IMG/VR virus record: IMGVR_UViG_3300023184_000031
Span: 42,256 to 106,255 of that record
Length of the DNA: 64,000 nucleotides
DNA from: a virus
Taxonomy: Duplodnaviria > Heunggongvirae > Uroviricota > Caudoviricetes
Reading direction: 5' to 3' (one strand)
Shown here: piece after piece, positions 1 to 41,555 of the stretch
Numbering within the stretch: position 1 is the first letter of the stretch
Layout: every line of letters begins with the position of its first letter
Made by a program: the position numbers and the translations under genes
The notes under the pieces: generated by a model
What the model was told of the DNA's origin: nothing
The model's input: only the letters and a program-made list of their open reading frames with translations
The model's database searches: none

Positions 1-534
1 CCAGTACAAGCAACTGAACCAGAAGATTTATTCATGGGTAGTGCTACAAATCCATTAGCAATGTACTTTGATAATGAACCAAATAATGATGGATCTGAAG
101 ATTTTAACAATGAAGAAGAACCAACAGCCGGCGATATAGAACCAAGCGAACCAATGTCAGCTGCAGGTAGTATGTCTGATGAAGATTATGATGCTTGGAT
201 GAAATGGAGTGATTTAAATGATCGTTTAAGTGCTACTAAATCTAATATATTAAAAGCTAAGCGTAATAAAGGTGGTAAAATTATGGGAGATATTGGTGAT
301 ACATCATCAAATGAAATACCTCGTTTAACTACTCTTAAACAATCATTAGAAGATAGAATGAATGCTTTGGTAGCAAAATCTAAATATCTTCAAAGTAAAA
401 TTGAAAAAGAAACAGGCAAAGCATACGAACCAATTGAAACGGATATTGAGGATGAAGAAGATACAATAGATGAAGCATTTAATAGAGAATACGAAATAAG
501 AAAATTACAACATTATGCTGGAATTATTAAATAA
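1..534 (+). CDS. Acidic hypothetical protein, 5'-partial; ends in an EIRKLQHYAGIIK motif
   Basis: Frame is open from base 1 (PVQATEPEDLF-MGS...), so the true start is probably outside the window; C-terminus resembles the scaffold C-terminus. Confidence 0.75.
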   Translation, partial: PVQATEPEDLFMGSATNPLAMYFDNEPNNDGSEDFNNEEEPTAGDIEPSEPMSAAGSMSDEDYDAWMKWSDLNDRLSATKSNILKAKRNKGGKIMGDIGDTSSNEIPRLTTLKQSLEDRMNALVAKSKYLQSKIEKETGKAYEPIETDIEDEEDTIDEAFNREYEIRKLQHYAGIIK

Positions 535-871
535 ATATAAAAAACAGGCATTATATATTATTATTGGTTTATTAGTAATGTATTCAATGATTTGCCTATT
601 TACACCAAAACCACCAATGCCTATTGATTATAGAGCATCTATTGATTCTCTTATTCAATCAAATAATGTATTAATAGACCATCAAAATAAAATTGATAGT
701 ATAATTATTATTTATAATGCTAAAGTAGATTCGGTAGATAATAGAATTGATAGTGTTAAAGAAAAAACCATTATCATTAAAAAGTATTATCACGAAGTAA
801 GTAGTAAAGTAGATACGTTTCAAATATCACAACTAGATTCATTTTTTAACGCAAGATATCCACAACCATGA
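515..871 (+). CDS. Membrane-anchored coiled-coil protein (possibly spanin-like)
   Basis: N-terminal hydrophobic segment YIIIGLLVMYSMICLF followed by heptad-like sequence; overlaps next gene by 4 nt (ATGA). Confidence 0.55.
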   Translation: MLELLNKYKKQALYIIIGLLVMYSMICLFTPKPPMPIDYRASIDSLIQSNNVLIDHQNKIDSIIIIYNAKVDSVDNRIDSVKEKTIIIKKYYHEVSSKVDTFQISQLDSFFNARYPQP

Positions 872-1260
872 AATATCTATTAATTATATTAATATCATTA
901 TTACCAATAGCAGTAAAATCACAAGATACATCTATTAAGATATCTACATCAACTGCTAGAAGAGTTGCTAAAGATTTAGTGATATGCGATAGTACTAAAG
1001 CAATGCTTGAGGTAACTAAAGAACAACTTTCATTAACTGAACAAAAAGTAGTATTGAAAGATAGTATTATATCTAATCATGTTAATAAAGGATTATTGTA
1101 TGAAGCACGTATTCAAAACGAACAAGATAAGTTTAAGATACAAGGAATGTGGGTTAATGATTTGCGCAAACAGAATAAAAAACTTAAAGCTAATTTAATG
1201 TTTACTAAAATAGTGCTATCAGTAGCGCTAGGTGGACTAATATTACTTTCAGCCAAATAA
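868..1260 (+). CDS. Signal-peptide, coiled-coil protein with C-terminal TM segment (possible spanin partner)
   Basis: MKYLLIILISLLPIAVKSQ signal-like N-terminus; C-terminal IVLSVALGGLILLS. Confidence 0.55.
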   Translation: MKYLLIILISLLPIAVKSQDTSIKISTSTARRVAKDLVICDSTKAMLEVTKEQLSLTEQKVVLKDSIISNHVNKGLLYEARIQNEQDKFKIQGMWVNDLRKQNKKLKANLMFTKIVLSVALGGLILLSAK

Positions 1261-1305
1261 TCGTCCTGCTACCATAGGACTGCCTATCTAGACCATAGGT
1301 GCAAG

Positions 1306-1334
1306 AGCTTAATCCCGTAAGGTTAGGCTTTTTT
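1306..1334 (+). terminator. Intrinsic terminator
   Basis: Stem AGCTTAATC/GGTTAGGCT with G-U pairs, followed by a T run. Confidence 0.65.
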
Positions 1335-1336
1335 AT

Positions 1337-1344
1337 ATATTTAT
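1337..1344 (+). promoter_or_regulatory. ATATTTAT putative late-promoter motif
   Basis: Recurring motif, 25 nt before the ATG at 1370. Confidence 0.55.
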
Positions 1345-1369
1345 TAATATAAATAACAATAAAAAAAAA

Positions 1370-1711
1370 ATGAAACAACAAATTAACGAAATCAAAAGAA
1401 TGCAAGAGTTAGCTGGCCTATCAGTAAACAATGAAGCATTTGCTTCTTTTCAAAATACATTTAAAGATACAAATGATGAAGAGCAAAAACAATCAATGAC
1501 AAGAGTATATGGAGACGCTGATGATTATCCTAAAGAATTAAATACATTAGTATCAACTTTTATAGGAGCTTCAGATAATTATGCAATCACAAAAGATGGT
1601 AACACATTTAATGTTTATAAATACAGACGTATGCTAGATGGTGTTGGTAATCCAACTCCCTTTACTAGTATAGATGATGCTAAGAAGTTTATACAAAAGG
1701 ATAATAGGTAA
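1370..1711 (+). CDS. Hypothetical protein with N-terminal INEIKRMQELAGL tag (putative internal head protein)
   Basis: Tag nearly identical to the 41292 ORF and similar to the scaffold C-terminus. Confidence 0.7.
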   Translation: MKQQINEIKRMQELAGLSVNNEAFASFQNTFKDTNDEEQKQSMTRVYGDADDYPKELNTLVSTFIGASDNYAITKDGNTFNVYKYRRMLDGVGNPTPFTSIDDAKKFIQKDNR

Positions 1712-1742
1712 AACCACTCTTAGGATAGAATCCCTTAGTTAA

Positions 1743-1769
1743 CCCAACTCCATAAGGTTGGGCTTTTTT
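1743..1769 (+). terminator. Intrinsic terminator
   Basis: Stem CCCAACT/GGTTGGG followed by T6. Confidence 0.6.
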
Positions 1770-1771
1770 AT

Positions 1772-1779
1772 ATATTTAT
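1772..1779 (+). promoter_or_regulatory. ATATTTAT putative late-promoter motif
   Basis: 21 nt before the terminase ATG. Confidence 0.55.
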
Positions 1780-1800
1780 ATACAATCAATAGTATATAAT

Positions 1801-3396
1801 ATGGCTGAACAAGCTAACATTAAAGATATAATAAAACAGGAATATATAAAATGCGCTATGGATCCCGTGCATTTTTTCCGCAAATATTGTTACATTACCC
1901 ACCCGGTTAAAGGTAGAGTATTATTTCATTTATACTCATTTCAGGAAAATACATTAAATGAATTTAGATCTAATCGTTTTTCTATTGTAAATAAATCACG
2001 TCAGTTAGGTATTTCTACTCTAGTAGCAGGATACTCATTATGGACAATGTTATTTAATAAGGATAAAACAGTATTGTGTATAGCAACAAAGCAAGAAACC
2101 GCTAAAGGTATGGTTGAGAAAGTACAGTTTATGTATAATAATCTACCAGCTTGGCTACGTGGTAATACAAAACCACTATCAGATAATAAACTCTCACTCA
2201 AATTAGCCAATAACTCTCAAATTGTAGCTACATCAGCCGCCTCAGATGCAGGTAGATCTTACGCTGTATCTTTGTTACTAATAGATGAGGCCGCGTTTAT
2301 TGAAGGTATTGATAAAATATACACGAGTATTAAACCAACAATTGCTACGGGTGGAGGAATTATTGCCTTATCATCACCAAATGGTATTGGTAACTGGTTC
2401 CATAAAATGTATACTGAAGCTCAAATTGGTAAGAATGACTTTAAGCCAATAGAACTAAAATGGAATTTACACCCAGATAGAGTGGCACCAATAGATCCAG
2501 GATGGGAAGAACGTGAACGTGCTAATATGTCTCCTAGAGAATTTGCTCAAGAGTATGACTGTGACTTTTTGGGATCAGGAAACTCAGTCGTAGATTCAGA
2601 CATATTAACCTTTTATGAGCAAACATACATCCAAGAACCAATCGAACGTCGCTTTTTGGGTGGGGATTATTGGATTTGGCAGTATCCAGATTATAGCAAG
2701 TCTTATGTGGTGTGCGCTGACATTGCCCGTGGTGATAGTAGTGACTATTCTACGTTCCATGTTATCGACATCGAATCCTGTGAACAAGTCGCAGAATATA
2801 AATCCCAAATAGGTACTAGAGATTTTGGTAATATGCTAGTATCTGTTGCTACAGAATACAACAACGCATTATTAGTACCAGAAAACTCAAATATAGGATG
2901 GGATGTTGTTAATACTATTATTGAAAAAGGATACCAAAATCTATATTATTCTCCTCGCGCTTATGGTGAACTAAATATTGATAAGTGGATGGCTAAAATG
3001 GGTACCGATCAAACAGTACCTGGGTTTACTATGTCAGTAAAGACAAGACCACTTGTTATCTCTAAAATGGAGGCGTATATTCGAGATAGACATTTTATTT
3101 TTCATTCTAAACGTTTGCTAGAAGAACTACGTGTGTTTATTTGGATGAATGGTAAACCACAAGCACAAAATGGATATAATGATGATTTGGTAATGGCCTT
3201 AGGTATTGGATTATTTATTAGAGATACTGGTATTAAATTTAATCAACAAGGTATGGATATAACTAGAAAATCTATTGATAATATATCTAGTACAAGATTG
3301 GGATATAGTAATATGGCATCCATGCCTGATGGTGTAGCTAACCCATACCAAATAGAAACCCCATATGGGTCAGAGGACATTACATGGCTAATATAA
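1801..3396 (+). CDS. terL: Terminase large subunit (T4 gp17-like)
   Basis: KSRQLGIST Walker A, LLLIDEAAFI Walker B, SSPNG motif III, nuclease CADIARGDSSDYS and NDDLVMAL. Confidence 0.95.
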   Translation: MAEQANIKDIIKQEYIKCAMDPVHFFRKYCYITHPVKGRVLFHLYSFQENTLNEFRSNRFSIVNKSRQLGISTLVAGYSLWTMLFNKDKTVLCIATKQETAKGMVEKVQFMYNNLPAWLRGNTKPLSDNKLSLKLANNSQIVATSAASDAGRSYAVSLLLIDEAAFIEGIDKIYTSIKPTIATGGGIIALSSPNGIGNWFHKMYTEAQIGKNDFKPIELKWNLHPDRVAPIDPGWEERERANMSPREFAQEYDCDFLGSGNSVVDSDILTFYEQTYIQEPIERRFLGGDYWIWQYPDYSKSYVVCADIARGDSSDYSTFHVIDIESCEQVAEYKSQIGTRDFGNMLVSVATEYNNALLVPENSNIGWDVVNTIIEKGYQNLYYSPRAYGELNIDKWMAKMGTDQTVPGFTMSVKTRPLVISKMEAYIRDRHFIFHSKRLLEELRVFIWMNGKPQAQNGYNDDLVMALGIGLFIRDTGIKFNQQGMDITRKSIDNISSTRLGYSNMASMPDGVANPYQIETPYGSEDITWLI

Positions 3397-3429
3397 TTAA
3401 TAAATATTTATTGACATAATAAAACACAA

Positions 3430-5319
3430 ATGGCTGAACAAAATACAGGTTTATTTAGTAGATTAAGACGTTTATTTAGTACTGATGTGGTAATCAGAAA
3501 TGTAGGCGGAAACCAACTAAAAACAATAGATGTTGATCGTATCCAAGCATATGGTAATGTAAAAACCAATGCTCTTATAGATAGATTTACTAAGCTACAC
3601 CGCTATGGCGCTAATATGCCATACAACCCAACAATGAACTACCAAACACTTCGTATTCAGTTGTATACTGACTATGAAGCTATGGATACTGAATCAATCA
3701 TTGCCTCTGCTCTTGATATTATTGCTGATGAATCAACACTTAAGAATGAAACACAAGAAGTATTACAAATTCGATCACCAGATGAAAATGTACAACGTAT
3801 ATTATATAATTTATTCTATGATGTATTGAATATTGAATTCAATTTATGGTTATGGATTAGAAATATGTGTAAATATGGCGACTTTTATTTACATCTTGAG
3901 ATAGCTGAAAAATTTGGTGTATATAATGTAACACCATTATCAGTTTATGATATGATTCGTGAAGAGGGTATGGATCCTCAAAATCCATCATACGTTTGTT
4001 TCAAGATTGATCCAATGGTGATCGCAGCTGGTGGTATTAATTCACGTGTTAAAGATAGAGATGGTAAAATCAAATTTGAAAACTACGAAATAGCGCATTT
4101 CAGGCTATTAACTGACGCTAACTATCTCCCTTATGGACGCTCGTACATAGAGCCTGCTCGTAAAACATATAAGCAGTATGTGCTGATGAAGGATGCAATG
4201 ATGCTCCATCGTATAACACGTGCCCCGGAAAAACGTGTATTTTATGTTGATATAGGTAATATGCCACCAAACGAGGTTGATGGATACATGGAACGTTTAA
4301 AGCAAAAAATGCAAAAAACACCATATATAGATAAAAATACAGGTGAATATAATCTGAAGTATAATATGATGAACGTGATGGAGGATTTTTATATCCCTCA
4401 ACGTGGCTCTAACTCAAATACTAAGATTGATACAATTAAAGGTCTTGAATATAATGCTATTGATGATGTAAATTTCCTACGTGATGAAATGTTAGCGGCG
4501 CTTAAGGTACCTAAAGCATTCTTTGGCTTTGAAAAAGATTTGACTGGTAAAGCTACATTAGCTGCTGAAGATATTCGTTTCGCTCGTACAGTAGAGCGTA
4601 TTCAGCGTATTGTATTATCTGAACTATATAAAATTGCATTAGTACATTTATATACTCAAGGATTTGATGGTGAAGCACTATCTAATTTTGATTTAGCATT
4701 AACAGTTCCATCAATTATATATGAGCAAGAAAAAATTGCTCTATGGAAGGAAAAGATTGCATTAGCTAAAGACATGCAGGACACTAAATTAATCCCATCT
4801 GATTGGATATTCGACAATATATTCCAATTCAGCGAAGATCAATTCGATGAAATGCGCGATCTAGTAGCTGAAGATATGAAACGTACATTCCGCTTCTCAC
4901 AAATCGAGAATGAGGGTAATGATCCGGCTAAATCAGGTAAATCATATGGCACACCACATGATCTAGCATCATTGTATGGTAAAGGTAGAGCAGGTATGAA
5001 TATAGATGGACCTGTCCCTCCAGGATATGATGAAAAACGTCCTGTTGGTCGTCCTGAAGAAAAAGCATCTATTATAGGTACACAAAAAGATCCATTAGGT
5101 AAAGATAGATTAGGTAGTAAAGAAAATGCTACATTATATACTGCTAATATTCCTGATGAAGGTAGTGGCACACCAAAAAGCTATGGTGCTTTAGCACTAG
5201 CTGAAACATTGCGATATAGAGATATGTTAAAAGGTATACCAAGATCTGATAAACAAATGGTATTCGAATCGCAACAGGAATCTTCATTATTAGACGAAAA
5301 AAATATTAAGGATATATAA
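3430..5319 (+). CDS. gp20: Portal protein (T4 gp20-like)
   Basis: YGRSYIEPARK, RAPEKRVFYVDIGNMP, EDFYIPQRG, ALKVPKAF motifs; follows terL. Confidence 0.93.
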   Translation: MAEQNTGLFSRLRRLFSTDVVIRNVGGNQLKTIDVDRIQAYGNVKTNALIDRFTKLHRYGANMPYNPTMNYQTLRIQLYTDYEAMDTESIIASALDIIADESTLKNETQEVLQIRSPDENVQRILYNLFYDVLNIEFNLWLWIRNMCKYGDFYLHLEIAEKFGVYNVTPLSVYDMIREEGMDPQNPSYVCFKIDPMVIAAGGINSRVKDRDGKIKFENYEIAHFRLLTDANYLPYGRSYIEPARKTYKQYVLMKDAMMLHRITRAPEKRVFYVDIGNMPPNEVDGYMERLKQKMQKTPYIDKNTGEYNLKYNMMNVMEDFYIPQRGSNSNTKIDTIKGLEYNAIDDVNFLRDEMLAALKVPKAFFGFEKDLTGKATLAAEDIRFARTVERIQRIVLSELYKIALVHLYTQGFDGEALSNFDLALTVPSIIYEQEKIALWKEKIALAKDMQDTKLIPSDWIFDNIFQFSEDQFDEMRDLVAEDMKRTFRFSQIENEGNDPAKSGKSYGTPHDLASLYGKGRAGMNIDGPVPPGYDEKRPVGRPEEKASIIGTQKDPLGKDRLGSKENATLYTANIPDEGSGTPKSYGALALAETLRYRDMLKGIPRSDKQMVFESQQESSLLDEKNIKDI

Positions 5320-5356
5320 TAATTATATATTTATTGGTAGTGCACACTAAACTTAT

Positions 5357-6211
5357 ATGAAAATAAAACATAGTAAATTTAAAAATACTGGTATATTATT
5401 TGAATTACTAGTACGCCAAGTAGCATCAGATACAGTATCTGGTAAAGACTCAGCTGCTATTAATTTGATTAAGAAATATTTTTCCAAGTCAGAATTGGCT
5501 AAAGAATATAAACTATACCAGGCTTTAGTTAACTCAAAAGCATTAACAGAAGGTAAAGCCGAGTCATTAATTAATGCTACGCTTGAAATATCTTCACGTT
5601 TAAATCGCTCTGCACTACGTAAAGAAAAATATAACATTATTAAGGATATTCGTGAACATTATGATTTAGAAGATTTTTTTAAATCAAAGATTAACAACTA
5701 CTCCCAATATGCTGCTGCATTTAATTTAATAGAGGCTCACAACTCACTAGAGTTTGTTGAGCCATCTCAAGTTATTGAAAATAAGGTAACACTACTTGAA
5801 CACATCATACGTAAAGAAGTAAATAAAGATGAAGTAAAAGATCGTGTAATGGAAGAATATCTTTCAATGGATAAAGGTACGCGCATTTTAGTATACAAAA
5901 CATTATTAGAAAGATTTAATAATAAATATAATGATATGTCTAACACACAGAAATCTGTGTTGAAAGAATACATTAATAATATATCTAATACTGTTAAATT
6001 ACGTGAATTTGTTAATAATCATTTCGCTGCTATTAGAGCAGAATTGAATAGATTAAATCAAACAGTAACAGACAAAACAGTACAAATTAAAATACACGAA
6101 GTGGTTAATATTCTTAAACCACTTGAGAAAAATCAAAATGTAAAAGACGACAATATTATTGCTTTACTACAATTCCACCAATTAATATCAGAATTAAAGA
6201 CAGTAAAATAA
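5357..6211 (+). CDS. Conserved-looking helical hypothetical protein in the head module
   Basis: 284-aa ORF with its own ATATTTAT motif (5327-5334), between portal and protease. Confidence 0.7.
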   Translation: MKIKHSKFKNTGILFELLVRQVASDTVSGKDSAAINLIKKYFSKSELAKEYKLYQALVNSKALTEGKAESLINATLEISSRLNRSALRKEKYNIIKDIREHYDLEDFFKSKINNYSQYAAAFNLIEAHNSLEFVEPSQVIENKVTLLEHIIRKEVNKDEVKDRVMEEYLSMDKGTRILVYKTLLERFNNKYNDMSNTQKSVLKEYINNISNTVKLREFVNNHFAAIRAELNRLNQTVTDKTVQIKIHEVVNILKPLEKNQNVKDDNIIALLQFHQLISELKTVK

Positions 6212-6879: not shown

Positions 6880-6881
6880 TA

Positions 6882-7010
6882 ATGGCTAAAGCAAAAGGAT
6901 CTAGTGATGCTAGAAAAGTTACATTTGGAGCTCGTAAAAAAGGAACAGCAAAAAAATCATTCAATAAACACACACCACGACCTAAGAAATACGTAGGTCA
7001 AGGACGATAA
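6882..7010 (+). CDS. Small highly basic peptide, 42 aa (not in ORF track)
   Basis: Manual translation MAKAKGSSDARKVTFGARKKGTAKKSFNKHTPRPKKYVGQGR; fills the gap between neighbouring ORFs. Confidence 0.7.
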   Translation: MAKAKGSSDARKVTFGARKKGTAKKSFNKHTPRPKKYVGQGR

Positions 7011-7020
7011 AAGACATACA

Positions 7021-8718
7021 ATGAAAAGTATTAAACAACAGTACATCGATCTACGTGAAGGTAATATGTCACAAGCAAATTTCATGCGTAACTTACGTAT
7101 GACCTTACCTCAATACGTTACTAATTTATCTTCATTTGAAGACTCAGTTCGTATCCTTAAAAATAAAGGTATATTGACTGAAGCTGATCTTTCTATATCA
7201 AAAGATACAGTAGATAAGATGAAAAGTGTCCTTCAAGGATTAACAGCTAATAATGATGAATATCATAGAGACGGATATACTATGGGTTTCTTTGAAGGTG
7301 AGGGTCAAGATGAAAAAGGTAAAGAAATATCTGAAACCGATACTAATTCAGGTCCAAATGCTCAGTGGTTAGGAAGCATTAAAGATATTATAGAAGATAA
7401 ATGGCAAAATGGTGAAATCAAAACATCGGCTGAATATGGTAGTGTAATGACTAAATTAAGTACTCAACCAGAAGGTATAATAGCTCAATATGGTGAAACT
7501 AGTGCTGAAGATGCTGCTAATAAATTACTTAATAGTGTATCTCATTTAGGTAGTGAATATGAGCCAGAATCAGGAGAAGATGAAGATTTTGAAAGAGATT
7601 ATGATATGGATTATAAAGACCCAAATGATCCTTTTGATATGGCTGAATCATTAAATGAAACAGTATCAGATGATGAGATCATGAAAAAATATAATGAAAT
7701 GTTTGGTAAAAATCCACAAACTAAATTTGCGGATGTAGCTAAAGCATTAAATATTCCTGAAGATCAAGTTAGTGCTGCTTTACAACCGGGAAATATACCT
7801 AAATTTGGTTTAAGAGAAGCCAAAGACGAAAAAGGTAAATGGACTAATACATCTGGTAAATCAATGTATGATCAATTTAAAGAAATTGACAATTTAAATG
7901 GTCAAGAAGTATTGATTGGTATTGATTTTGAAATGGAAAAAAACCATGATTTAACTAAACAAGAGGCTGCTAAAATTGTAATTAGGAATTTAAAGAAAAT
8001 TCCAAACTATTATACTAATTTTAAATTGTCAGGTAAAGAAGGATACGAACCAGGTTATATTGGCGGGAAATCAGCTCAACCAGAAGCACATCAGATGCAG
8101 TATCTTGATAAAAACAGGGGTAATGTAGTTGATAAGAAAAGAGGAATGCAACCAGTAAAAGGTGTTGAAAAACCTAAAAAAGATTCTGATAAAGGCGGTG
8201 AAACAAATAAAGCAGAAAAGAATATTAAATTAATGTCTCTTATCGCTAAAACAGTACGTGGCATGAAGAAAATGGATGCGACTGGTGAGAAAATGAAGAA
8301 AATTGTAATGAAAGAAGCACAATTAAATGACTTCCCAGGTGAAACACCAGGTAAAATAGCTCAACAAATACAAAATTATATTGATAGCAACCCAACATTA
8401 CAAAAATATTCAGACGAAATTACATTACAATCAAATCCTGATGGATTTTTAAGATTTGGATATTGGGAAACATTACCATCTGATGCTGCTAAAGCATTAT
8501 CATTGCAATTCAATATTGAACCAGATTATATTGATGCTGATGAAGATACTTCAGGGGGAACTTTTTACAGATTAACACCAAAACATACAGCTGGTAAAGT
8601 TAATTTAAATAAAGCTGATTTAATGAGAATGATTCGTGAAGAATTAGCTGAAATAACAGGCGTTTATAGCGGTGATGCAATGGATGCTGAAGACGGAAGT
8701 TCATACACAAACGATTAA
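7021..8718 (+). CDS. Large acidic hypothetical protein (putative internal head/core protein)
   Basis: 565 aa just upstream of the protease; several (I/L)xE sites such as DLRE, SLNE, GLRE and MIREEL. Confidence 0.65.
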   Translation: MKSIKQQYIDLREGNMSQANFMRNLRMTLPQYVTNLSSFEDSVRILKNKGILTEADLSISKDTVDKMKSVLQGLTANNDEYHRDGYTMGFFEGEGQDEKGKEISETDTNSGPNAQWLGSIKDIIEDKWQNGEIKTSAEYGSVMTKLSTQPEGIIAQYGETSAEDAANKLLNSVSHLGSEYEPESGEDEDFERDYDMDYKDPNDPFDMAESLNETVSDDEIMKKYNEMFGKNPQTKFADVAKALNIPEDQVSAALQPGNIPKFGLREAKDEKGKWTNTSGKSMYDQFKEIDNLNGQEVLIGIDFEMEKNHDLTKQEAAKIVIRNLKKIPNYYTNFKLSGKEGYEPGYIGGKSAQPEAHQMQYLDKNRGNVVDKKRGMQPVKGVEKPKKDSDKGGETNKAEKNIKLMSLIAKTVRGMKKMDATGEKMKKIVMKEAQLNDFPGETPGKIAQQIQNYIDSNPTLQKYSDEITLQSNPDGFLRFGYWETLPSDAAKALSLQFNIEPDYIDADEDTSGGTFYRLTPKHTAGKVNLNKADLMRMIREELAEITGVYSGDAMDAEDGSSYTND

Positions 8719-8724
8719 TATAAT

Positions 8725-9348
8725 ATGAAACAACTACTCATAGACCATACACCCTTTAAAATAGCTAAGCTAACGCTTACCGAAGGTAAATCTACCAACG
8801 GTAGAATGTTACTTGAAGGTAAACTACAAGAAGCTGAAGTGAAGAATGGTAACGGCCGCAGATACCCACGCGAAGTATTAGAACGTGAAGTCAACAAATA
8901 CATACAAGGACCAGTAAAAAATAACAATGCTATGGGAGAATTAGATCACCCAGAATCATCTGTTATTAATTTATCAAATGTATCACACAATATTAAAAAA
9001 GTGTGGTGGGATGGTAATGATTTGATGGGACAACTCGAATTACTTAACACACCATCAGGCAAAATTGCAATGGAACTTGTTAGTGCTGGAATACCATTAG
9101 GTATATCATCACGCGGTATGGGTTCTGTTAAGCAAATTGGCGAGACTGTAGAGGTACAAGACGATTTCGAATTATTATGTTGGGATTTAGTATCAGTACC
9201 ATCAACACCAGAAGCATATATGCATCCAGTTGGTAAACTTTCAACAATGAATGAAGGTAAAAAATATATTGTTAGAGATTATAGCAGAATCAATTCATTA
9301 ATAACTGAAATAATTTGTTCACAAACAGGTGTTTGTCCGCTCTGTTAA
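8725..9348 (+). CDS. gp21: Prohead protease (T4 gp21-like)
   Basis: NGNGRRYP, GELDHP, GISSRGMGS and WDLVSVPS motifs. Confidence 0.93.
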   Translation: MKQLLIDHTPFKIAKLTLTEGKSTNGRMLLEGKLQEAEVKNGNGRRYPREVLEREVNKYIQGPVKNNNAMGELDHPESSVINLSNVSHNIKKVWWDGNDLMGQLELLNTPSGKIAMELVSAGIPLGISSRGMGSVKQIGETVEVQDDFELLCWDLVSVPSTPEAYMHPVGKLSTMNEGKKYIVRDYSRINSLITEIICSQTGVCPLC

Positions 9349-9374: not shown

Positions 9375-9382
9375 ATATTTAT
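9375..9382 (+). promoter_or_regulatory. ATATTTAT motif heading the scaffold-capsid operon
   Basis: Followed by a ~120-nt leader with hairpins GGGTAGC/GCTACCC and TAAGATT/AATCTTA. Confidence 0.55.
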
Positions 9383-9500: not shown

Positions 9501-10607
9501 ATGTCAAACAAAAACCTATTTAAAGAGGCTATCGCAGATGCAAAAGCAGTTCGCGAAGCAGCGTTAGCAAACGCAAAAGCCGCTCTTGAAGAAGCTCTGA
9601 CTCCGAAACTTCAATCTATGTTAGCTGCAAAGTTAAACGAGATGGATTATGAAGGAGAAGTTGAAGATCTTGAAGAAGACGCAGAAATGGAAGAAGGATT
9701 TGCTACATCTCACGGAGATGATAGCGATGAAAATCTTGATTTCAATTTAGAAGAAAATGATGAATTGGAAGAAGATTTCGATTTATCTGAAATTTTAGCT
9801 GAACTTGATGAAGAAGAATTCAGTGAACCTTACACAGACGAAAAACCTTTTAAAGACATCAAAGGTACTGAAAGAGGCTACGTTAAAGAAGCTAAAGAAG
9901 AAGATGAAGAAGAAGAATCTGAAGAAGGTGAAGAAATGCCTGAAGAAGGTGAAGAAATGCCTGAAGATATTGATTCTTTAAAATCATTAATTCAAAGCCT
10001 TATTGCTCAGGAAATGGGTAACGAAGGTGGAGAAATGCACGATGAACCAGATGCAGATAACGCTGGTGGTCCAAGTGATCACGATGCAGATAATGCAGAT
10101 GATGAAATCAATTTAGATGAATTATTAGCTGAATTAGATGCTTTAGGCGAAAGCGATGAACTCGAAGAGCGTAAAAAATCTAAGCACGAAAAAGGTGAAA
10201 CTAAAGCTCAAGAAAAAGCAGAACATGCTTCAGGAAAAGAGAAAGCAGAGAAATCTGAAATGAAAGAAGCTATCGCTACTATCAACACTCTTCGTCATGA
10301 ATTAAATGAAGTTAACTTATTAAACGCTAAGTTACTTTATGTTAATAAGATCTTTAAAGCAAAGAACTTATCAGAATCACAAAAGTTACAAGTAATTGCG
10401 TCTTTTGACAAAGCAACTACAGCTAAAGAAGCTAAAGTTGTTTTTGAATCATTGAACGCAACATTGACCCCATCAACTGCTAAAAAGCAAATTAAAGAAT
10501 CTATGGGATTCGCTTCAAGAGCAGCTGGTGTTGCACCTAATAAAGCAATCGTTGAATCAAACGATGTTATTACTAGAATGCAAAAACTCGCAAACATTAT
10601 TAAATAA
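9501..10607 (+). CDS. Prohead core scaffold protein (gp22-like)
   Basis: Very acidic, coiled-coil ends, lies between protease and capsid; ends in TRMQKLANIIK. Confidence 0.85.
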   Translation: MSNKNLFKEAIADAKAVREAALANAKAALEEALTPKLQSMLAAKLNEMDYEGEVEDLEEDAEMEEGFATSHGDDSDENLDFNLEENDELEEDFDLSEILAELDEEEFSEPYTDEKPFKDIKGTERGYVKEAKEEDEEEESEEGEEMPEEGEEMPEDIDSLKSLIQSLIAQEMGNEGGEMHDEPDADNAGGPSDHDADNADDEINLDELLAELDALGESDELEERKKSKHEKGETKAQEKAEHASGKEKAEKSEMKEAIATINTLRHELNEVNLLNAKLLYVNKIFKAKNLSESQKLQVIASFDKATTAKEAKVVFESLNATLTPSTAKKQIKESMGFASRAAGVAPNKAIVESNDVITRMQKLANIIK

Positions 10608-10628: not shown

Positions 10629-12278
10629 ATGAACATTCAACAACTTTTAGAATCGTCTAATCAGTACAAAGTAATTGCTGATGACGCAAAAAAACTTTCC
10701 CACAAGTGGGGTAAGTCTGGCCTTTTAGAAGGCATTAAAAGCGAAACTGATCGCAACACAATGGCTATGCTATTGGAAAATCAGGCAAAACAATTAGTTA
10801 CAGAAGCTTCTTCAACTGGTACTCAAACTCCAGGTGCTGGTGCTTATTCTGGTGAATCTTGGAACGGCGTTGCTCTTCCATTGGTACGTAGAGTATTTGG
10901 TGAAATCGCTGCTAAAGAATTCGTTAGTGTACAACCAATGAACTTACCTTCAGGTCTTGTATTCTATCTTGATTTCAAATATGGCACTAATATTAATCCA
11001 TTCACTAGTGGCGGTTCTTTGTATGGCGCTAATACTTCTACAAACGTAACTGATATTACTTCAGCTTCATTATATGGTGCTGGTAAATTTGGTTATTCAA
11101 TCAATCAGTATACTCAGTCAAGTATTACTGTAGTAAGTGGTTCTGCTACATGGGCTGATTTTAACTTTGATTCAGATTATTCATCTTCTGCTGCTGCTGG
11201 TCAATATGCTAAAATTCAAGTTCCATTACCTAATGGCTTTGATAAGAATGGTGTAAGAGCCTTTACAATTGTATCAGGTTCTACTATTGCTGCTACAGAT
11301 GTTTTACAAAACTTTACAACTCTTAATGTTGCTCAAACTACAGCTTCATTTTTTGTTACTGGTAGTAAAATTTCTCAAGCTGGTACTGGTTCTTTCGTTT
11401 TGTATTATGATTTTGCTCCTCAAGATTCTGGTAGTGGTCAATTCCGCGGTGATTTTGAAGATGGTGTTACTAAACAACCAGGTAATGCTGCTCCTTCAAC
11501 AATCAATATCCCAGAAATTAACGTTCAGTTAAAATCTGAAGCAATCGTTGCTAAAACTCGTAAGTTAAAAGCACAATGGACACCGGAATTCGCTCAAGAT
11601 CTTAACGCTTACCATAGCGTAGATGCTGAAGCTGAATTAACTGGTATCTTATCTCAATATATTTCAATGGAAATTGATTTAGAATTGTTAGATATGTTGA
11701 TTCAAAACGCATACACTACGGATGCATGGTCTGCAATTAATAACACAACTATTGCTGTTAGTGGTACTGGTACTAGTACAGTTTTATCTAACCCAACAAC
11801 TAATACAGCTGGTTATTACAATACACAAGGTGGTTGGTTCCAAACTTTAGGTACTAAATTACAAAAAGTTTCTAACAAAATCCATCAGTTGACTTTAAGA
11901 GGTGGCGCAAACTTCATGGTTTGTTCTCCTACAGTTGCTACAATTATTGAGTCAATCCCAGGATTTGCTGCTGATGGTACAGGTGAAAAATTAGAGTACA
12001 ACTTCGGTATCCAGAAAGTAGGTAGCTTGAACAGTCGCTACAAGGTTTACAAAAATCCGTATATGACTGAGAACGTTATCTTGATGGGTTACAAAGGATC
12101 TCAATTCTTGGAATGTGGTGCTGTATTTGCTCCATATGTTCCATTAATCATGACTCCATTGTTATACGATCCAAGTACATTCACACCAAGAAAAGGTTTG
12201 ATGACTAGATACGCTAAGAAAATGATCCGTCCTGATTACTATGGTAAGATCTATGTTAGTGGTTTGAATACTATCTAA
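10629..12278 (+). CDS. gp23: Major capsid protein (T4 gp23-like)
   Basis: LPLVRRVF, VQPMNLPSGLVFYLD, AKTRKLKAQWTPEFAQDLNAYH, FAPYVPL and GLMTRYA motifs. Confidence 0.97.
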   Translation: MNIQQLLESSNQYKVIADDAKKLSHKWGKSGLLEGIKSETDRNTMAMLLENQAKQLVTEASSTGTQTPGAGAYSGESWNGVALPLVRRVFGEIAAKEFVSVQPMNLPSGLVFYLDFKYGTNINPFTSGGSLYGANTSTNVTDITSASLYGAGKFGYSINQYTQSSITVVSGSATWADFNFDSDYSSSAAAGQYAKIQVPLPNGFDKNGVRAFTIVSGSTIAATDVLQNFTTLNVAQTTASFFVTGSKISQAGTGSFVLYYDFAPQDSGSGQFRGDFEDGVTKQPGNAAPSTINIPEINVQLKSEAIVAKTRKLKAQWTPEFAQDLNAYHSVDAEAELTGILSQYISMEIDLELLDMLIQNAYTTDAWSAINNTTIAVSGTGTSTVLSNPTTNTAGYYNTQGGWFQTLGTKLQKVSNKIHQLTLRGGANFMVCSPTVATIIESIPGFAADGTGEKLEYNFGIQKVGSLNSRYKVYKNPYMTENVILMGYKGSQFLECGAVFAPYVPLIMTPLLYDPSTFTPRKGLMTRYAKKMIRPDYYGKIYVSGLNTI

Positions 12279-29839: not shown

Positions 29840-29840
29840 A

Positions 29841-32553: not shown

Positions 32554-32564
32554 TAGTTATATAA

Positions 32565-34532: not shown

Positions 34533-34542
34533 TAAATAATAA

Positions 34543-34851: not shown

Positions 34852-34861
34852 ATGTTATGTT

Positions 34862-35401
34862 ATGACTAAGGAAGAAAGAAAAGAATATAATAAGCTTTAT
34901 TATATTAATAATAAAGAAACTATTATAAAACAAACCCAACAGTATTATACTGATAATAAAGAAACTATTAATGAACGTAATAGAAAATATTCTAAAAATC
35001 ATTATAAAAAAAACTCAGAACGTTATAAATTATGTATGATTAATCGTTACAAAAACGATCCTCAAACTAAATTATCTTTATTATTAAGAGTTAGATTAAA
35101 TAATGCTTTAAAAAAATCAAAAAAATCCTATAGTTCTTTTAAATTATTAGGATGTTCTATTTATGATTATAAGCAATATTTAGAAAATCAATTTAAATTA
35201 GGTATGACATGGGATAATCATGGTGATATATGGGAGATAGATCATATTAAACCATGTAATAGTTTTGATTTAACAAATATAGAACAACAAAAACAATGCT
35301 TTCATTATACTAATTTACAACCATTATTTAAAACCACAGAAATAGCTAAATCTCTAGGGCATATTAATGAAATGGGTAATAGAAATAAATCTGATAATTA
35401 A
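34862..35401 (+). mobile_element. Free-standing HNH-type homing endonuclease in the baseplate operon
   Basis: K/Y-rich N-terminal repeats; LGCS...LE.QF..GMTWDNHG..WEIDHIKPC...FHYTNLQPL. Confidence 0.8.
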
Positions 35402-35403
35402 AA

Positions 35404-38400: not shown

Positions 38401-38976
38401 GGAAAAGCTATTCTAGATACAATAGCATACACAGAAGGAACAGCACGCTCCGGTCAAAATGGATATGATATTTTAGTTAATTATAATAAAATTCCAAATT
38501 GGACAGCAGATACTACCATTGGTCATCCAAATATACCTATAGATTGGGGAGGTGGCACAAGTACAGCAGCAGGAAGATATCAATTTTTATATAAGTCATG
38601 GCTTGGAATTAATGGAAATAAAAATGTTGCTATTAATAAAGCAAACCAAGATAATGCAGGATGGAAACTAGTAAAACAAAGAATATCAGGCGGAGAAAAT
38701 ACAGCTAAATCAGCATATAATATTGCTGCTGGTGGAGAAAAAGATGTTACTAAAAATGAATCTTTCCTTATTATGCTAGGGGTACAAAAAAGTGGATTAG
38801 CAGGAACATGGGCTTCTATTTGTGATAGATACGGCTCCTATCCATACACAAACCAAGGCTCAGGACTAACAACTCAAGAAATATACAATATTTATTTAGA
38901 AGCAATAAGTAAAAATGGTGGAAGTATTACAACATCTACTACTACTTCAACATTTTCATTAGCTCCTCGTATTTAA
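35404..38976 (+). CDS. Baseplate hub protein with C-terminal lambda-type lysozyme
   Basis: N-terminal RPMPGI, LYMRPGYTVLVEWGW; C-terminal AILDTIAYTEGT...GYDIL...STAAGRYQFL...WAS. Confidence 0.85.
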   Translation: MSIFKSSFSQAVQDQLKVRQGAMRTRTVNNLQYLNSRNAWIRMTSSVNVNGTNDLAKKYILQGGTLNLDSKSKDLKGLNKKSGIGDFNSAYSTGIDPKNPYQRGIRPMPGIVSADIKSKTAYGSLREVVMNFQCWDIQQLEDLEVLYMRPGYTVLVEWGWTPYLNNKGEYKSDFTDYYDIINSPSQDRTALFKALFDKSVLYGGNYDAMFGYVKNYQWSARMDGGYDCQTTIITTGEIIESLKVNYILPLDIKSITQQQQTVTNYIQNGGTTPQQSVIPFAPAPPPPAPTLSALLPSGVQQVATNAGNTGGLLTDEFTGPGTSISSWSPAYQQNVLAGVWAETFWKIKKDVLEKTIEFSTNANSAFVMNGGAGACTSFIPIIETINNPNSLAQGSGPNQVYISIGAMCEILNKYIIAKGSDGQPLIRLSVKANEYDQTSPTGSYLYCTAHPLQVSVDPSVCLIKNPLWIGGDVINTVSASIAPITYTTEAEAVFSLLVKGFKDKGTNPTKLKEGFALLASYGKDKGLQVYYIVEQFMADKKSSNTSFTENYGSIQEMLNKELGIGNGNDMQKIYESLQVIGVNATWVDNGFFGSNFSSPGVSNIVITAPPSTANTAALTTIATKSPQALSNLEFLKDLPLDYFYENKPESEIGVIKNIFVNVDYLYQRALDTGLQSGDQNQRNEISLYTYLKKVISDIQAAIGNVSSFEIHVDPVDNNVARIIDINYTEPNKATYDKLFELQVHNLDSVVRSYSLQSQIFPNQSALIAIGSQAKGGQLGMQTNTMIDFNRSLTDRIITEKVDGIGSRIGVNSNKQPTITNGLANIISLFSSLNQSKSSTESTTDQKTDYSVLASGAKNSLRDLIVYFQSIVKSPGSNRNLIPTKFSCEMDGIGGLVIGHMFRLPDNIMPRGYRGEGIGSKLGNAITSIGHTISNGDWSTKIDTLNIVLDDSKSQFAILDLSQIKSLLFESINKETGGKATINPNTAANFGQVDSSIPSWGKAILDTIAYTEGTARSGQNGYDILVNYNKIPNWTADTTIGHPNIPIDWGGGTSTAAGRYQFLYKSWLGINGNKNVAINKANQDNAGWKLVKQRISGGENTAKSAYNIAAGGEKDVTKNESFLIMLGVQKSGLAGTWASICDRYGSYPYTNQGSGLTTQEIYNIYLEAISKNGGSITTSTTTSTFSLAPRI

Positions 38977-38989
38977 TAAAAATTAATAT

Positions 38990-39517
38990 ATGGCATTAAG
39001 AATACCTAAAAATAAAATACAAGAAGGTAAGTATACCGCTGGTGGAGAGTATATAGTAGAATCAACAAATACTATATATCAAGGATATTATTATGAAGTA
39101 AATAGCGTATTTTATGCTGGTAAATCTTTTGATGTTAATGCTCTTAAATTAATACCAATAAAGGATAGGAATACTTTACTGAATAGAGGATTATCATTAG
39201 CTTTATTTTCTACAATATCTAAAATCACATCACAAACATTACAACAACCAAAAATAACTAGTATTCCTAATGGTCCTACTACTAATAGAAATATAACATC
39301 TAATACTGATAGATTTTATTGTAGTAAAATAAATCAACAACCTATTATAATAAAAGAAATTGATGAAACTACCTATACTTCTCTCAAATCAAATTCTTTA
39401 TATAAAGTTACATCAGTAAAATTTGTACCATCACCTGGATATGCTCAAGGAATACCTCAGAATCTAGATCAAGCAGAAAAAGAGCTTCCTGGTATAAGAA
39501 TTTTCTTGCTAGGCTAA
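38990..39517 (+). CDS. Hypothetical baseplate-region protein
   Basis: 175-aa ORF closing the structural module. Confidence 0.6.
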   Translation: MALRIPKNKIQEGKYTAGGEYIVESTNTIYQGYYYEVNSVFYAGKSFDVNALKLIPIKDRNTLLNRGLSLALFSTISKITSQTLQQPKITSIPNGPTTNRNITSNTDRFYCSKINQQPIIIKEIDETTYTSLKSNSLYKVTSVKFVPSPGYAQGIPQNLDQAEKELPGIRIFLLG

Positions 39518-39554
39518 ACTTCCTTTCGTATCTTCAATTCAAAGGTTATGAAAT

Positions 39555-40847
39555 ATGTTTTACATTATAGAAAGACAAGAGCAATTAGATAAATTAGGTC
39601 CGTTTAATGATTGCTTCGTACAATTCATTCAACAAAACGATAATTACCATCCCAAATTAAGCCCACTAAGTTTAATTTATGTTCGTGATATAACACAACA
39701 TAAAGGGTATATGTTATGCTTAGATCACAATGAATCATTTGCATTAGATAAACAAACAACATTAAATTGGTTATTAGGTAATACTGATAGAATGTTTGTA
39801 CTAAATAAAAAAGAATCACTGTATCATTTTAGCTACCCAGACAAACTATTCGACATCAACTTTATTGAATTTCCAGACCTAACAGGCGTATTCACACCAT
39901 GTCATACATTCTATTACAAACAACACACAGCAAGTCCAATAACAAATAAACTAATTCCAATTAGTAAACATTATGAAGAATGCGAGAAAATGTTTGATGT
40001 AGTACTTCCAATAATACAAAAGTTCCGATCAGATAACGTTGTTTATGTGTTTAATAATGGCCCTTTAACGCGTGTGTTTCACACTATAGAGTCAAATGGT
40101 ATTAAGGTAGATAAACAATGCTTTATTGATGCTTATGGCGCTAACTTATCATACCCACAATTAAATCTTAGCAAAGGTAGAATATACAGTCAATACAACT
40201 TATACACATTAACAGGCAGACCATCAAACACATACAACAGCATTAATTTTGCTGCATTAGATAAAAATAGTGGTGAGCGTTTATGCTACAGACCCACAAA
40301 TGATACATTCTATGAATTTGATATTCAGGGGTATCATCCACGCATATTAGGTGATATGGTTGATTTTAACTTCGGTGATAGAAACACATATGAGCTACTA
40401 AGTGAATTATTAGGTGTATCAGCACAAGAAGCTAAGGAATTAACATTCAAACAATTTTATGGTGGTGTGTGGGCTGAATATAGAGATCAACCATTTTTTA
40501 GAGACATAGTAACACTAACAGACGGCATATGGGATGAATATAATTATAACAGAGCATATCCCACTAGGAACCGGATATTTATACATGACCCTGACATGAC
40601 TCAATCAAAGTTATTGAATTACATAATCCAAAGTTATGAGACTTCAACCAATGTTGCGATGTTAGATAACATATTGAATTACCTAAGCGATAAGAAAACT
40701 AAATTAGTGTTATACACGTATGATGCATTCTTATTTGACTACAGTAAGGAAGATGGCAAAGACCTATTAACAACATTAAAAAGTATGATACACTATCCCA
40801 TTAACATTAAACATGGTAAATCATACCACGGTTTAGAAAAACTATAA
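39555..40847 (+). CDS. Short family-A DNA polymerase-like protein
   Basis: TLTGRPS (motif 2), FDIQGYHPR (motif A), AKELTFKQFYG (motif B), YTYDAFLF (motif C). Confidence 0.8.
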   Translation: MFYIIERQEQLDKLGPFNDCFVQFIQQNDNYHPKLSPLSLIYVRDITQHKGYMLCLDHNESFALDKQTTLNWLLGNTDRMFVLNKKESLYHFSYPDKLFDINFIEFPDLTGVFTPCHTFYYKQHTASPITNKLIPISKHYEECEKMFDVVLPIIQKFRSDNVVYVFNNGPLTRVFHTIESNGIKVDKQCFIDAYGANLSYPQLNLSKGRIYSQYNLYTLTGRPSNTYNSINFAALDKNSGERLCYRPTNDTFYEFDIQGYHPRILGDMVDFNFGDRNTYELLSELLGVSAQEAKELTFKQFYGGVWAEYRDQPFFRDIVTLTDGIWDEYNYNRAYPTRNRIFIHDPDMTQSKLLNYIIQSYETSTNVAMLDNILNYLSDKKTKLVLYTYDAFLFDYSKEDGKDLLTTLKSMIHYPINIKHGKSYHGLEKL

Positions 40848-40853
40848 ATATTT

Positions 40854-41288
40854 ATGGCGGAACAACTAAATGGATTCTTTGATTTGAACAAACTATTCTG
40901 TACATTTACCTCTCCTGCTGACCTGGAGGAAACTGTATCCACAATCAACAAGCGTTATTCAATATTATTCAGCAAGATCTTCATACTAGAATCACCACAA
41001 AGTGATGAACTAATATGTACTTATAATATTGATACAGGAAATATGGCACAACAGCCAATGGCTCACACTATCCTATTGCATCGCAAAAAGGAAAGTAATA
41101 CACTGTATACTATCAATGCATTAAACACGTTGATTAGGTCGTTGAATGGTGGACGTTTAAATAAGAATTTCATTATTGAATGGAGCGGCTACAAAAATTG
41201 CATATTATTAACTAATGGTCCCGATATTCGTCGTTTAGATACAGCTATTCATAAAATTATTGATTTTAGTAGACAACAATATTTATAG
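40854..41288 (+). CDS. Hypothetical protein
   Basis: 144-aa ORF; no recognised motif. Confidence 0.6.
   Translation: MAEQLNGFFDLNKLFCTFTSPADLEETVSTINKRYSILFSKIFILESPQSDELICTYNIDTGNMAQQPMAHTILLHRKKESNTLYTINALNTLIRSLNGGRLNKNFIIEWSGYKNCILLTNGPDIRRLDTAIHKIIDFSRQQYL
41279..41286 (+). promoter_or_regulatory. ATATTTAT motif inside the replication region
   Basis: Directly precedes the RMQQLAG-tagged ORF. Confidence 0.5.
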
Positions 41289-41291
41289 TAT

Positions 41292-41555
41292 ATGAAACAA
41301 CCTATCAACGAAATCAAAAGAATGCAGCAATTAGCTGGATTGATTAAAGAAAATAAATCATTTGATTACCAGGAAGATAAAATTGTAATGGATGATGATA
41401 CTAAAGATGCTATTTTAGATGATGAAGAATTACAACAATTTATCACTCCTAAATCATTTGTTAGAAATAAAATGGGTCAAATAGTTTTATGGGTTGATTG
41501 GATGGAACCTGAACAATTTGATAAGTTGGCAAAGTTCTTAGGAATAGAGTATTAA
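41292..41555 (+). CDS. Hypothetical protein with N-terminal INEIKRMQQLAGLIKE tag
   Basis: 20-nt identity (AACGAAATCAAAAGAATGCA) with the 5' end of the 1370 ORF. Confidence 0.7.
   Translation: MKQPINEIKRMQQLAGLIKENKSFDYQEDKIVMDDDTKDAILDDEELQQFITPKSFVRNKMGQIVLWVDWMEPEQFDKLAKFLGIEY

Follow-up and report, generated by a model that had tools for sequence, protein, structure and literature searches.

A peptide matching the scaffold C-terminal tail at the ends of unrelated proteins of a T4-like Bacteroidota phage: a probable removable prohead-targeting tag

Introduction

The internal proteins IPI-III and Alt of phage T4 carry a capsid targeting sequence (CTS; Mullaney and Black 1996; PMC9026906, PMC3012670). 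These CTS propeptides direct the internal proteins to the core, and the T4 protease gp21 cuts after L/I-x-E (PMC9026906). How the T4 CTS is recognized has been an open question since the 1990s. In phage 80alpha, the coat N-arm is bound by an 11-residue scaffold helix together with a 5-residue hook, RIIK, an element that SaPI1 CpmB also has (PMC5644958). The 80alpha scaffold ends in ..EIARQKRIIKN.

In herpesviruses (UL26/UL26.5) and lambda (C/Nu3), the protease and the scaffold have a common C-terminus through nested genes, and a second protein enters the procapsid via the coat-binding tail of the scaffold. Encapsulin cargo-loading peptides are short C- or N-terminal peptides which send diverse cargo into an HK97-fold shell. 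In phiKZ and SPN3US, many head proteins are reportedly processed by a gp21-like protease after Glu; we know of no portable common leader or scaffold-tail mimicry among their propeptides.

Here we analysed a 64,000-nt stretch (the window; positions 42,256 to 106,255 of IMG/VR record IMGVR_UViG_3300023184_000031) and the 170,255-bp genome from which it comes, that of a 170-kb T4-like phage of Bacteroidota. The phage is of the far-T4 lineage, and its scaffold is gp22-like. The original prediction for the window was that the C-terminal helix of the scaffold (RMQxLAG) is reused as a portable tag on unrelated proteins.

Results

The genome encodes a T4-type set of gp21-type protease, gp22-like scaffold, gp23 coat and gp20 portal, and these genes form the head module of the window:

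3430..5319, + strand: portal of the T4 gp20 type (Pfam Portal_T4, 6.9e-69)
7021..8718, + strand: 565-aa protein of the head module; the motif ..LMRMIREELAE.. is close to its C-terminus
8725..9348, + strand: prohead protease of family S77, T4 gp21 type (Pfam Peptidase_S77)
9501..10607, + strand: scaffolding protein, very acidic, between the protease and the MCP
10557..10604, + strand: C-terminal peptide of the scaffold, SNDVITRMQKLANIIK, preceded by a conserved IVE site
10629..12278, + strand: major capsid protein (MCP), gp23 type (Pfam Gp23)

The protease has both the His (GELDHPE) and the Ser (SSRGMGS) motifs present in T4 gp21, and the MCP has a conserved propeptide site, ..QLVTE/AS.., of which E59 is invariant. 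The scaffold was assigned by its position, its composition and its gp22-like N-terminus (LFKEAIADAKAV, similar to LKEQLIAEAQKI of T4 gp22).

The scaffold ends in ..NDVITRMQKLANIIK. RMQxLA[GN][IL][IL], a short amphipathic helix to which a hydrophobic tail is attached, is first of all a conserved scaffold C-terminus: the same motif ends the scaffolds of about 70 relatives, whose MCP identity is 58-86%, and also those of phages immuto, Mel-JY01, RM378 and LR756508. AlphaFold2, run with an alignment of the tail, predicted a helix from N31 to L40 (10 residues) followed by a non-helical 5-residue ANIIK, with a pLDDT of about 85. On this model the tail would resemble the 80alpha SP/CpmB element (PDB 6B0X, 6B23) in lying at the extreme scaffold C-terminus, in having a helix of about 10-11 residues with a 5-residue tail containing IIK, and in being reused by a second, unrelated protein. 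In 80alpha, however, a single competing satellite protein resizes the capsid, whereas hundreds of phage-encoded proteins are concerned here, and the 80alpha element has neither N-terminal use nor an adjacent protease site of such kind. Homology between the two tails was not detectable, the likeness of the hooks being limited to a few residues and statistically unsupported, and a PDB profile search with the scaffold tail recovered no scaffold chain. A match of the tail profile to human APC16 (QVARMEKLAGL) in the PDB was non-significant (E of 0.15) and was attributed to chance.

Throughout the genome, the motif [RK][MLW][QK]x[LY]A[GN] was found in seven copies, three N-terminal and four C-terminal. 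Its position is strictly terminal, with 7/7 copies in the coding frame and at the extreme end of the protein, and a six-frame regex scan of the window found it only in the coding frames of the scaffold and of the three tagged ORFs listed below. By chance, 0.07 matches in total and 0.004 terminal matches would be expected (2000 residue shuffles of the proteome). All four of the motif sequences named in the original prediction were recovered at the coordinates given there, and three extra copies lie outside the window (N-terminal at g112545; C-terminal at g140713 and g35806). The tagged genes of the window other than the scaffold are as follows:

1..534, + strand: C-tagged ORF, which forms the C-terminal half of an acidic protein of 345 aa (genome 41752-42789)
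475..531, + strand: C-terminal tag AFNREYEIRKLQHYAGIIK of this ORF, with an IDE site immediately before it
1370..1711, + strand: N-tagged ORFan of 113 aa, with the leader MKQQINEIKRMQELAGL at 1370-1420
41292..41555, + strand: N-tagged protein of 87 aa, with the leader MKQPINEIKRMQQLAGLIKE at 41292-41351

ORF 1..534 ends in ..EYEIRKLQHYAGIIK; the full 345-aa protein has an N-terminal LRKLIREAITEVLNE leader plus the C-terminal tag, and its family retains the C-terminal tag in seven related loci. ORF 41292 had been described as an island among replication genes. It is located at the boundary between the tail and replication genes, directly ahead of a NUMOD homing endonuclease, after which come gp32, a RecA-like protein, a 5'-3' exonuclease and a DnaB-like helicase.

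ORFs 1370 and 41292 have in common a 20-nt run, AACGAAATCAAAAGAATGCA, which agrees with the 20 identical nucleotides noted before, and their similarity ends where the tag ends. This pattern, and the exchange of leaders between orthologues described below, would be accounted for if the leaders were a DNA-level feature, namely, recombination junctions or translation-initiation cassettes without a common protein function. We consider this highly improbable, because the same peptide is also present at C-termini and at internal junctions, and because it is conserved as a protein in relatives down to 39% MCP identity, with synonymous differences between leader copies within the genome. A DNA-level feature alone would also not preserve the Glu at +4 (see below) or match the scaffold tail.

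The scan was extended to relatives, many of which proved to have tagged proteins. Among related loci, 79 motif matches were C-terminal, 36 were N-terminal and 5 were internal, and in a pattern scan of IMG/VR with position unspecified, 79 of the 85 distinct matches began at the first ATG. The N-terminal form comprises 20 residues, MKQxINEIKRMQxLAG[IL][IL]xE, and a profile of this leader matched 1,518 clusters at 50% identity in a library of 1.8 billion proteins (E<=0.001), a known family being absent from nearly all of them. The phages with this tag system make up a very large uncultured clade. The 249 N-tagged proteins that were sampled fell into 127 body clusters, which, with the three N-terminal and four C-terminal copies in the genome, bears out the proposal of a module portable to either terminus of unrelated proteins. 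Whereas the herpesvirus and lambda tails are shared through in-frame overlapping genes, the tag is carried here by independent genes genome-wide, and coat binding is so far a candidate function. Encapsulins differ in having no scaffold, protease or DNA packaging, the shell here being a phage prohead. Encapsulin cargo-loading peptides were rejected as a match, since their glycine-rich GSLxIGSLKG-like consensus was not found and the shell is a T4-type phage head.

Polyproteins with tag and body in tandem were also found, as were fusions. In relatives, the synteny often places an N-tagged gene between the protease and the scaffold, and in one relative the position ahead of gp32 is taken by another tagged body. 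Trp at motif position 2 of the N-terminal tag was limited to genomes with a Trp scaffold (4/14 versus 0/18; Fisher p=0.03, not corrected for phylogeny). In 50,697 phage records, the 25-residue leader had no tblastn match and the C-terminal domain of the scaffold matched only immuto, Mel-JY01 and LR756508; therefore, this search led to no cultured relative whose virion proteome has been published. A full-text literature search for the motif strings returned nothing relevant.

Sites of the (I/L)xE kind flank the tag. Glu was at +4 after LAG in 112/125 distinct N-terminal tags and in 60/85 matches of the position-unbiased scan, and an [IL]xE site was located within 16 residues upstream of the tag in 61/66 C-terminal tags, the background for such a site being 4.4% per 8-residue window. 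In ORF 1370, a canonical (I/L)xE site was absent after the leader. Judging from its sequence, the Glu at +4 of the N-terminal form would make a T4 gp21-type (I/L)xE site, although it could belong to the binding motif instead of a cut site. Orthologues of the 41292 body were headed by one or another of three distinct leaders, and the junction was in every case the invariant E20. RMQxLAG thus belongs to a set of interchangeable leaders that numbers at least three or four.

In these respects, the leader would be comparable to the T4 CTS, a short N-terminal propeptide on unrelated, fast-evolving proteins which ends in (L/I)xE for a gp21-type protease. Homologues of gp20, gp21, gp22 and gp23 are common to the two phages, and each has variable gene slots that retain only the leader. 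The leader of this phage is different in being 20 residues rather than 10, in its sequence, in occurring also at C-termini and internal junctions, and in being a copy of the C-terminal tail of the scaffold. Furthermore, the putative cargo is acidic here, the cargo of T4 being basic, and there are at least three interchangeable leader types. No resemblance was found between the RMQxLAG leader and the T4 CTS MKTYQEFIAE; a similar pattern was seen only in MIKLxDLLxE, a separate leader.

Both N-tagged genes of the window were found to have their own upstream motif, ATATTTAT, as the original prediction had it:

1337..1344, + strand: ATATTTAT, 33 nt upstream of the start of ORF 1370
9375..9382, + strand: ATATTTAT, 126 nt upstream of the scaffold gene
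41279..41286, + strand: ATATTTAT, 13 nt upstream of ORF 41292

The genome has 59 copies, of which 48 are within 60 nt upstream of a + strand ORF. The motif is ahead of five of the six non-scaffold tagged genes and of most structural genes, including those for terminase, portal, sheath and tube, and on this distribution it is likely a late-promoter motif.

Discussion

The helix of the scaffold tail is present on many protein ends with a likely protease site beside it, and a removable head-loading label is therefore the most probable explanation. We consider it probable that the tag is a prohead-targeting peptide which copies the scaffold tail and which can be removed by a gp21-type protease. 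We infer binding, packaging and cleavage, and with them the receptor, along the following lines. Copies of the scaffold's C-terminal peptide would have been added to many proteins, at the N- or the C-terminus, these proteins being unrelated to one another and for the most part small and acidic. During head assembly, the tag would occupy the site of the scaffold tail, and the protein would thereby be targeted to the prohead (capsid or core). The gp21-type S77 prohead protease would then remove the tag at the adjacent (I/L)xE, as with the T4 CTS.

Terminal peptides might alternatively be degrons or adaptor tags for cytoplasmic proteolysis or chaperoning, with the ClpP homologue of the phage or a Cpn60/Cpn10 pair as candidate partners. 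A ClpP-family protease gene is directly upstream of the C-tagged gene g140713, Cpn10 and Cpn60 genes are near the N-tagged gene g112545, and recognition signals of the ClpX type are known from N-termini as well as from C-termini. The best PHROG matches of the ClpP homologue, however, are head-maturation proteases, which points to the head. In addition, the tags end in IIK, IKK or IIG, corresponding to no known ClpX motif class (e.g., C-terminal LAA), the motif is the conserved tail of the scaffold, and the flanking (I/L)xE sites, head-module synteny and late promoter motif would be left unexplained. A role as degrons or adaptors is hence one to which we give very little credence.

Returning to a prohead-targeting tag, the leader is the same peptide as the scaffold tail, which leads to the hypothesis that its receptor is the docking site of that tail. 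The coat N-arm is suggested as this receptor by analogy with 80alpha, and the scaffold core by analogy with T4 internal proteins; the portal would be a further candidate. If the receptor were the scaffold core and not the coat, the tags would co-assemble with gp22-like helices, and the tail of the scaffold itself would serve for self-association. In T4, the internal proteins co-purify with gp22 and enter naked cores formed without gp23 (PMC9026906), the T4 CTS MKTYQEFIAEA is similar to the gp22 N-terminus MLKEQLIAEAQ, and both termini of the 345-aa tagged protein are scaffold-like. Against this, the partner in the one solved similar helix-and-hook, that of 80alpha, is the coat N-arm, and we regard a scaffold-core receptor as rather unlikely. 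A complex prediction for the coat protein with a 40-residue N-terminal leader gave a score of 0.00, with controls not run, and weighs neither way.

The likeness of the T4 CTS to the gp22 N-terminus suggests that leaders mimic scaffold ends. From sequence comparison, the RMQxLAGII leader appears to copy the C-terminal helix-and-hook of the scaffold, and the ..L[KR]xIIREEL leader resembles its N-terminus. We tentatively raise the possibility that the cargo leaders of T4-like phages in general are mimics of the scaffold's own termini. If so, any protein gaining such an end would compete for the scaffold docking site, be taken up into the prohead and then be freed by the protease, and more than 1,500 tagged ORFan families would be a predictable set of encapsidated, possibly injected proteins. 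The 20-residue leader flags over a thousand uncharacterised phage families, from sequence only, as probable head-internal proteins, which are candidate injected anti-defence factors or accessory core proteins. It may also serve as a natural modular tag by which foreign proteins could be loaded into the capsids of Bacteroidota and cyanobacterial phages.

Regarding the tagged bodies, no family from Pfam or PHROGs was found for the tagged proteins of the genome, and among 73 N-tagged IMG/VR proteins only two or three had a Pfam match (Imm5-like, DUF6926 and a weak RasGAP_C). ORF 41292 matched a PHROG 'major head protein' family at an E of 0.0075, which was given no weight. The AlphaFold model of its product consists of a confidently folded alpha/beta domain with the leader as a detached, low-confidence helix, and no significant fold match was found in PDB or BFVD. 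The net charge was negative for 88% of tagged bodies versus 51% of the small proteins of the phage. Since the tagged bodies are mostly acidic, unlike the basic internal proteins of T4, they may be expendable components of the core and not cargo for delivery. In relative P0132, the 41292 body is fused behind the LMRMIREELAE motif of the counterpart of the 565-aa protein, despite there being no significant BLASTP match between this body and the 565-aa head protein of the window. Some of the tagged genes are located among replication or chaperonin genes, which speaks against a prohead-targeting tag, as does the lack of a canonical (I/L)xE site in ORF 1370.

A conserved scaffold tail in a T4-type head module

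The window (bases 42256-106255) belongs to a phage genome of 170,255 bp with 32% GC and carries a T4-type head module, listed here in window coordinates, as used below unless a position is marked as genome (g):

1801-3396, large terminase
3430-5319, gp20 portal
8725-9348, S77 gp21-type prohead protease
9501-10607, acidic scaffold
10629-12278, gp23 coat protein

Among cultured phages, coat protein identity is highest with Flavobacterium phage immuto (60%), followed by Microcystis phage Mel-JY01 (51%) and Rhodothermus phage RM378 (39%). Within the module, at 6882-7010, lies an ORF of 42 aa that is extremely basic and has no Pfam match (MAKAKGSSDARKVTFGARKKG..); in the Mel-JY01 head module, an annotated ribosomal protein S21 gene is flanked by protease and scaffold.

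Across 78 related IMG/VR loci (coat identity 58-86%), R[MWF][QK]xLA[GN]I..K ended the ORF directly 5' of the coat gene in essentially all loci containing that ORF, and the motif is a conserved scaffold tail. Scaffold ends elsewhere were SRWQKLAGIIK (immuto), ERMKKLAGIVK (Mel-JY01), ERIKRLAGL (RM378) and SRMQKLADIS (the 484-kb phage LR756508), and the T4 gp22 C-terminus, EDIVSVYAKVASRF, could be aligned only loosely. The AlphaFold2 model from the tail alignment had NDVITRMQKL as a 10-residue helix and the next five residues, ANIIK, as non-helical, with a pLDDT of ~85. This predicted tail can be likened, by analogy, to that of the 80alpha scaffold (..EIARQKRIIKN), of which an 11-residue amphipathic helix and a 5-residue RIIK hook were seen bound beside the coat N-arm (PMC5644958). 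SaPI1 CpmB has the same helix-hook element and competes for its coat site (PMC5644958). The 80alpha chain was not retrieved by a profile search with the scaffold tail.

The scaffold tail recurs at the ends of unrelated proteins

The original prediction held that this helix (RMQxLAG type) is reused as a tag on unrelated proteins, at either terminus. The four sequences behind it were each found where they had been placed, and in a six-frame scan [RK][ML]Qx[LYF]A[GN][IL] matched the window in those four only, confining the tag to coding frames. A scan of the full genome gave seven copies, all seven at extreme protein ends, against 0.07 matches (0.004 terminal) in residue-shuffled proteomes:

1370, N-terminus of a 113-aa protein
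41292, N-terminus of an 87-aa protein
g112545, N-terminus (MKQYINEVKRLQKLAGIDE)
9501-10607, C-terminus of the scaffold
1-534, C-terminus of a 345-aa protein
g140713, C-terminus (..EMKRMQKLANVK, then stop)
g35806, C-terminus (..ERLKKLANIIG, then stop)

A 66-aa ORF at genome 162986-163186, with ATATTTAT upstream and ..QRIKKLANIKE/N.. at residues 25-35, may be an eighth copy, a variant with a longer leader.

Both the use of either terminus and the variety of carriers were borne out in related loci, which gave 79 C-terminal (mostly scaffolds), 36 N-terminal and 5 internal copies on more than 30 unrelated body families. When ORF 41292 (87 aa) was searched against 5.8 billion proteins, ~44 true orthologues were obtained, together with ~75 further proteins alike only over the first ~20 residues (the leader), at 80-95% identity. 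The back-translated pattern NExKRxQxLAG was found in at least 119 IMG/VR stretches and, among the matches listed, 79 of 85 distinct ones start at the first ATG of an ORF. A leader profile matched 1,518 clusters (50% identity) at E<=0.001 among 1.84 billion representatives; nearly all of the best 150 match at residues 1-30, several with two copies. In each of two complete relatives (183 and 169 kb), the strict motif matched four times, every time on the coding strand; a reversed control pattern had no match.

The 249 N-tagged proteins sampled fell into 127 body clusters with a median length of 119 aa, and 88% were net acidic compared with 51% of the small proteins of this phage. Nearly all N-tagged proteins are without a known family, one exception being a tandem tag-Imm5-like protein at locus L038 (12521-13849; L171:7352-8677). 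Its 442 residues form two repeats, each with a leader (..NEIKRMQKLAGLNE..) ahead of an Imm5-like immunity-protein domain; this is possibly a tagged polyprotein with an anti-toxin or anti-defence function. Trp occurred at motif position 2 of N-tags only in genomes with a Trp in the scaffold motif as well (4/14 versus 0/18, p=0.03, uncorrected for relatedness).

Protease-type sites adjoin the tag

In N-terminal copies the sequence runs ..LAG-[LI]-[IL]-x-E. Glu occupies +4 in 112 of 125 distinct N-tagged proteins and, among the matches listed in a scan with a pattern leaving those positions free, in 60 of 85; the background rate of an [IL]xE site is 4.4% per 8-residue window. C-terminal copies are without that Glu and have an [IL]xE site upstream instead, which is IVE, six residues ahead of the motif, in scaffolds and LDE, IQE, IDE or LKE in other families. 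T4 gp21 cleaves after L/I-x-E, and the propeptides of the T4 capsid targeting sequence (CTS) are removed that way (PMC9026906). An invariant Glu in the coat protein (..QLVTE/AS..) matches the T4 gp23 site (..FLTE/AE..). AlphaFold modelled the first 20 residues of ORF 41292 as a helix of low confidence, followed by a disordered linker around E20 and, over residues 24-87, a confidently predicted alpha/beta domain. The best-supported reading is that the tag is a putative T4 CTS-like propeptide: a copy of the scaffold tail would target its carrier to the prohead, and the leader would then be cut off by the S77 protease.

Leaders are interchangeable

Orthologues of the ORF 41292 body begin with the RMQxLAG leader, M.NFDLKKFLxE[GN]KLLKE, MKKSELKQIIKEEIxKVLNE or no leader, and every variant joins the body at the same invariant Glu. 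Fusions were also found: a g140713-like body, tag and 41292 body (P0122); leader, body, tag and 41292 body (P0123); and, in P0132, the 41292 body placed after the ..LKEMIREILDE.. motif of a protein homologous to the 565-aa head protein of the window. Tandem tag-body repeats occur in P0135, P0141 and L038. A docking peptide accounts better than a fold element for a tag that is found at both termini as well as at internal junctions. That the shared leaders mark a purely DNA-level cassette junction is conceivable but accounts for the data much less well than a prohead-targeting propeptide.

Two more leader types, a third (..L[KR]xIIREEL..) and a fourth (M.NFDLKKFLxENKL..LKE), stand in for the RMQxLAG leader in ORF 41292 orthologues. 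They lie at protein ends in immuto, in the 484-kb LR756508 and in this genome (g6716, C-terminus ..LRRIIREELKK, then stop; g39110; g41752, N-terminus; in the window, the N-terminus at 6211 and a site near the C-terminus of 7021-8718); loci L079 and L088 carry them too. A second leader, MIKLx[DN][LI]LxE, begins ~8 ORFs in this genome (window 14259, MIKLQDILLEA, and 49091, MIKLTDILKE; genome 23423, 28960, 29202, 33402 and 37916) and 19 in related loci. Its 10 residues, ending LxE, share their pattern with the T4 CTS MKTYQEFIAE.

The T4 CTS (MKTYQEFIAEA; ipII and ipIII, L221) in turn resembles the T4 gp22 N-terminus (MLKEQLIAEAQ; L082), with [QE][QE][FL]IAEA in common, a likeness that we did not find stated in the T4 reviews consulted. 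The scaffold N-terminus is itself kept from this lineage (LFKEAIADAKAV) to T4 gp22 (LKEQLIAEAQKI). As a lead and not a result, this suggests that mimicry of scaffold ends by leaders may be a general rule. As candidate receptor of the tag, the coat N-arm is suggested by the 80alpha analogy and the scaffold core by T4 internal proteins, which co-purify with gp22 and are incorporated into naked cores (PMC9026906). The acidic tagged bodies may be either delivered cargo or expendable core components.

Promoter motif and neighbours of the tagged genes

Of the 59 copies of ATATTTAT in the genome, 48 lie no more than 60 nt upstream of + strand ORFs, which include those for terminase, portal, sheath and tube as well as further structural genes. 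Five of the six non-scaffold tagged genes have the motif in front of them, and it also lies 126 nt upstream of the scaffold gene. In the form ATATTTAT[AT], it stands 12-35 nt ahead of the start codon in most structural genes and in three genes for GIY-YIG/NUMOD endonucleases (for example at 1337, 1772, 3404, 5327, 12343, 25610, 27839 and 41279) and is probably the late promoter of this phage, unlike T4 TATAAATA.

Outside the window, genome 140151-141090 (L085:14151-15090) encodes a protease of the ClpP family, matched best in PHROGs by head-maturation proteases, and directly 3' of it a 125-aa protein with a tail of the scaffold type (..RMQKLANVK). Together they resemble a second protease-plus-scaffold-like module, in addition to the S77 protease. 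Cpn10 and Cpn60 chaperonin homologues are encoded at genome 113751-115910 (L084:7496-9652), ~1 kb 3' of N-tagged g112545. Because this ClpP homologue adjoins a tagged gene and the phage has the Cpn10/Cpn60 pair, the tag could conceivably act as a degron or chaperone tag in the cytoplasm, but this explains the data much less well than a prohead-targeting propeptide. The timing and location of the tagged genes fit head assembly. An N-tagged gene is flanked by protease and scaffold in many relatives, and the slot before gp32, held here by ORF 41292, contains another body with the same leader in a relative.
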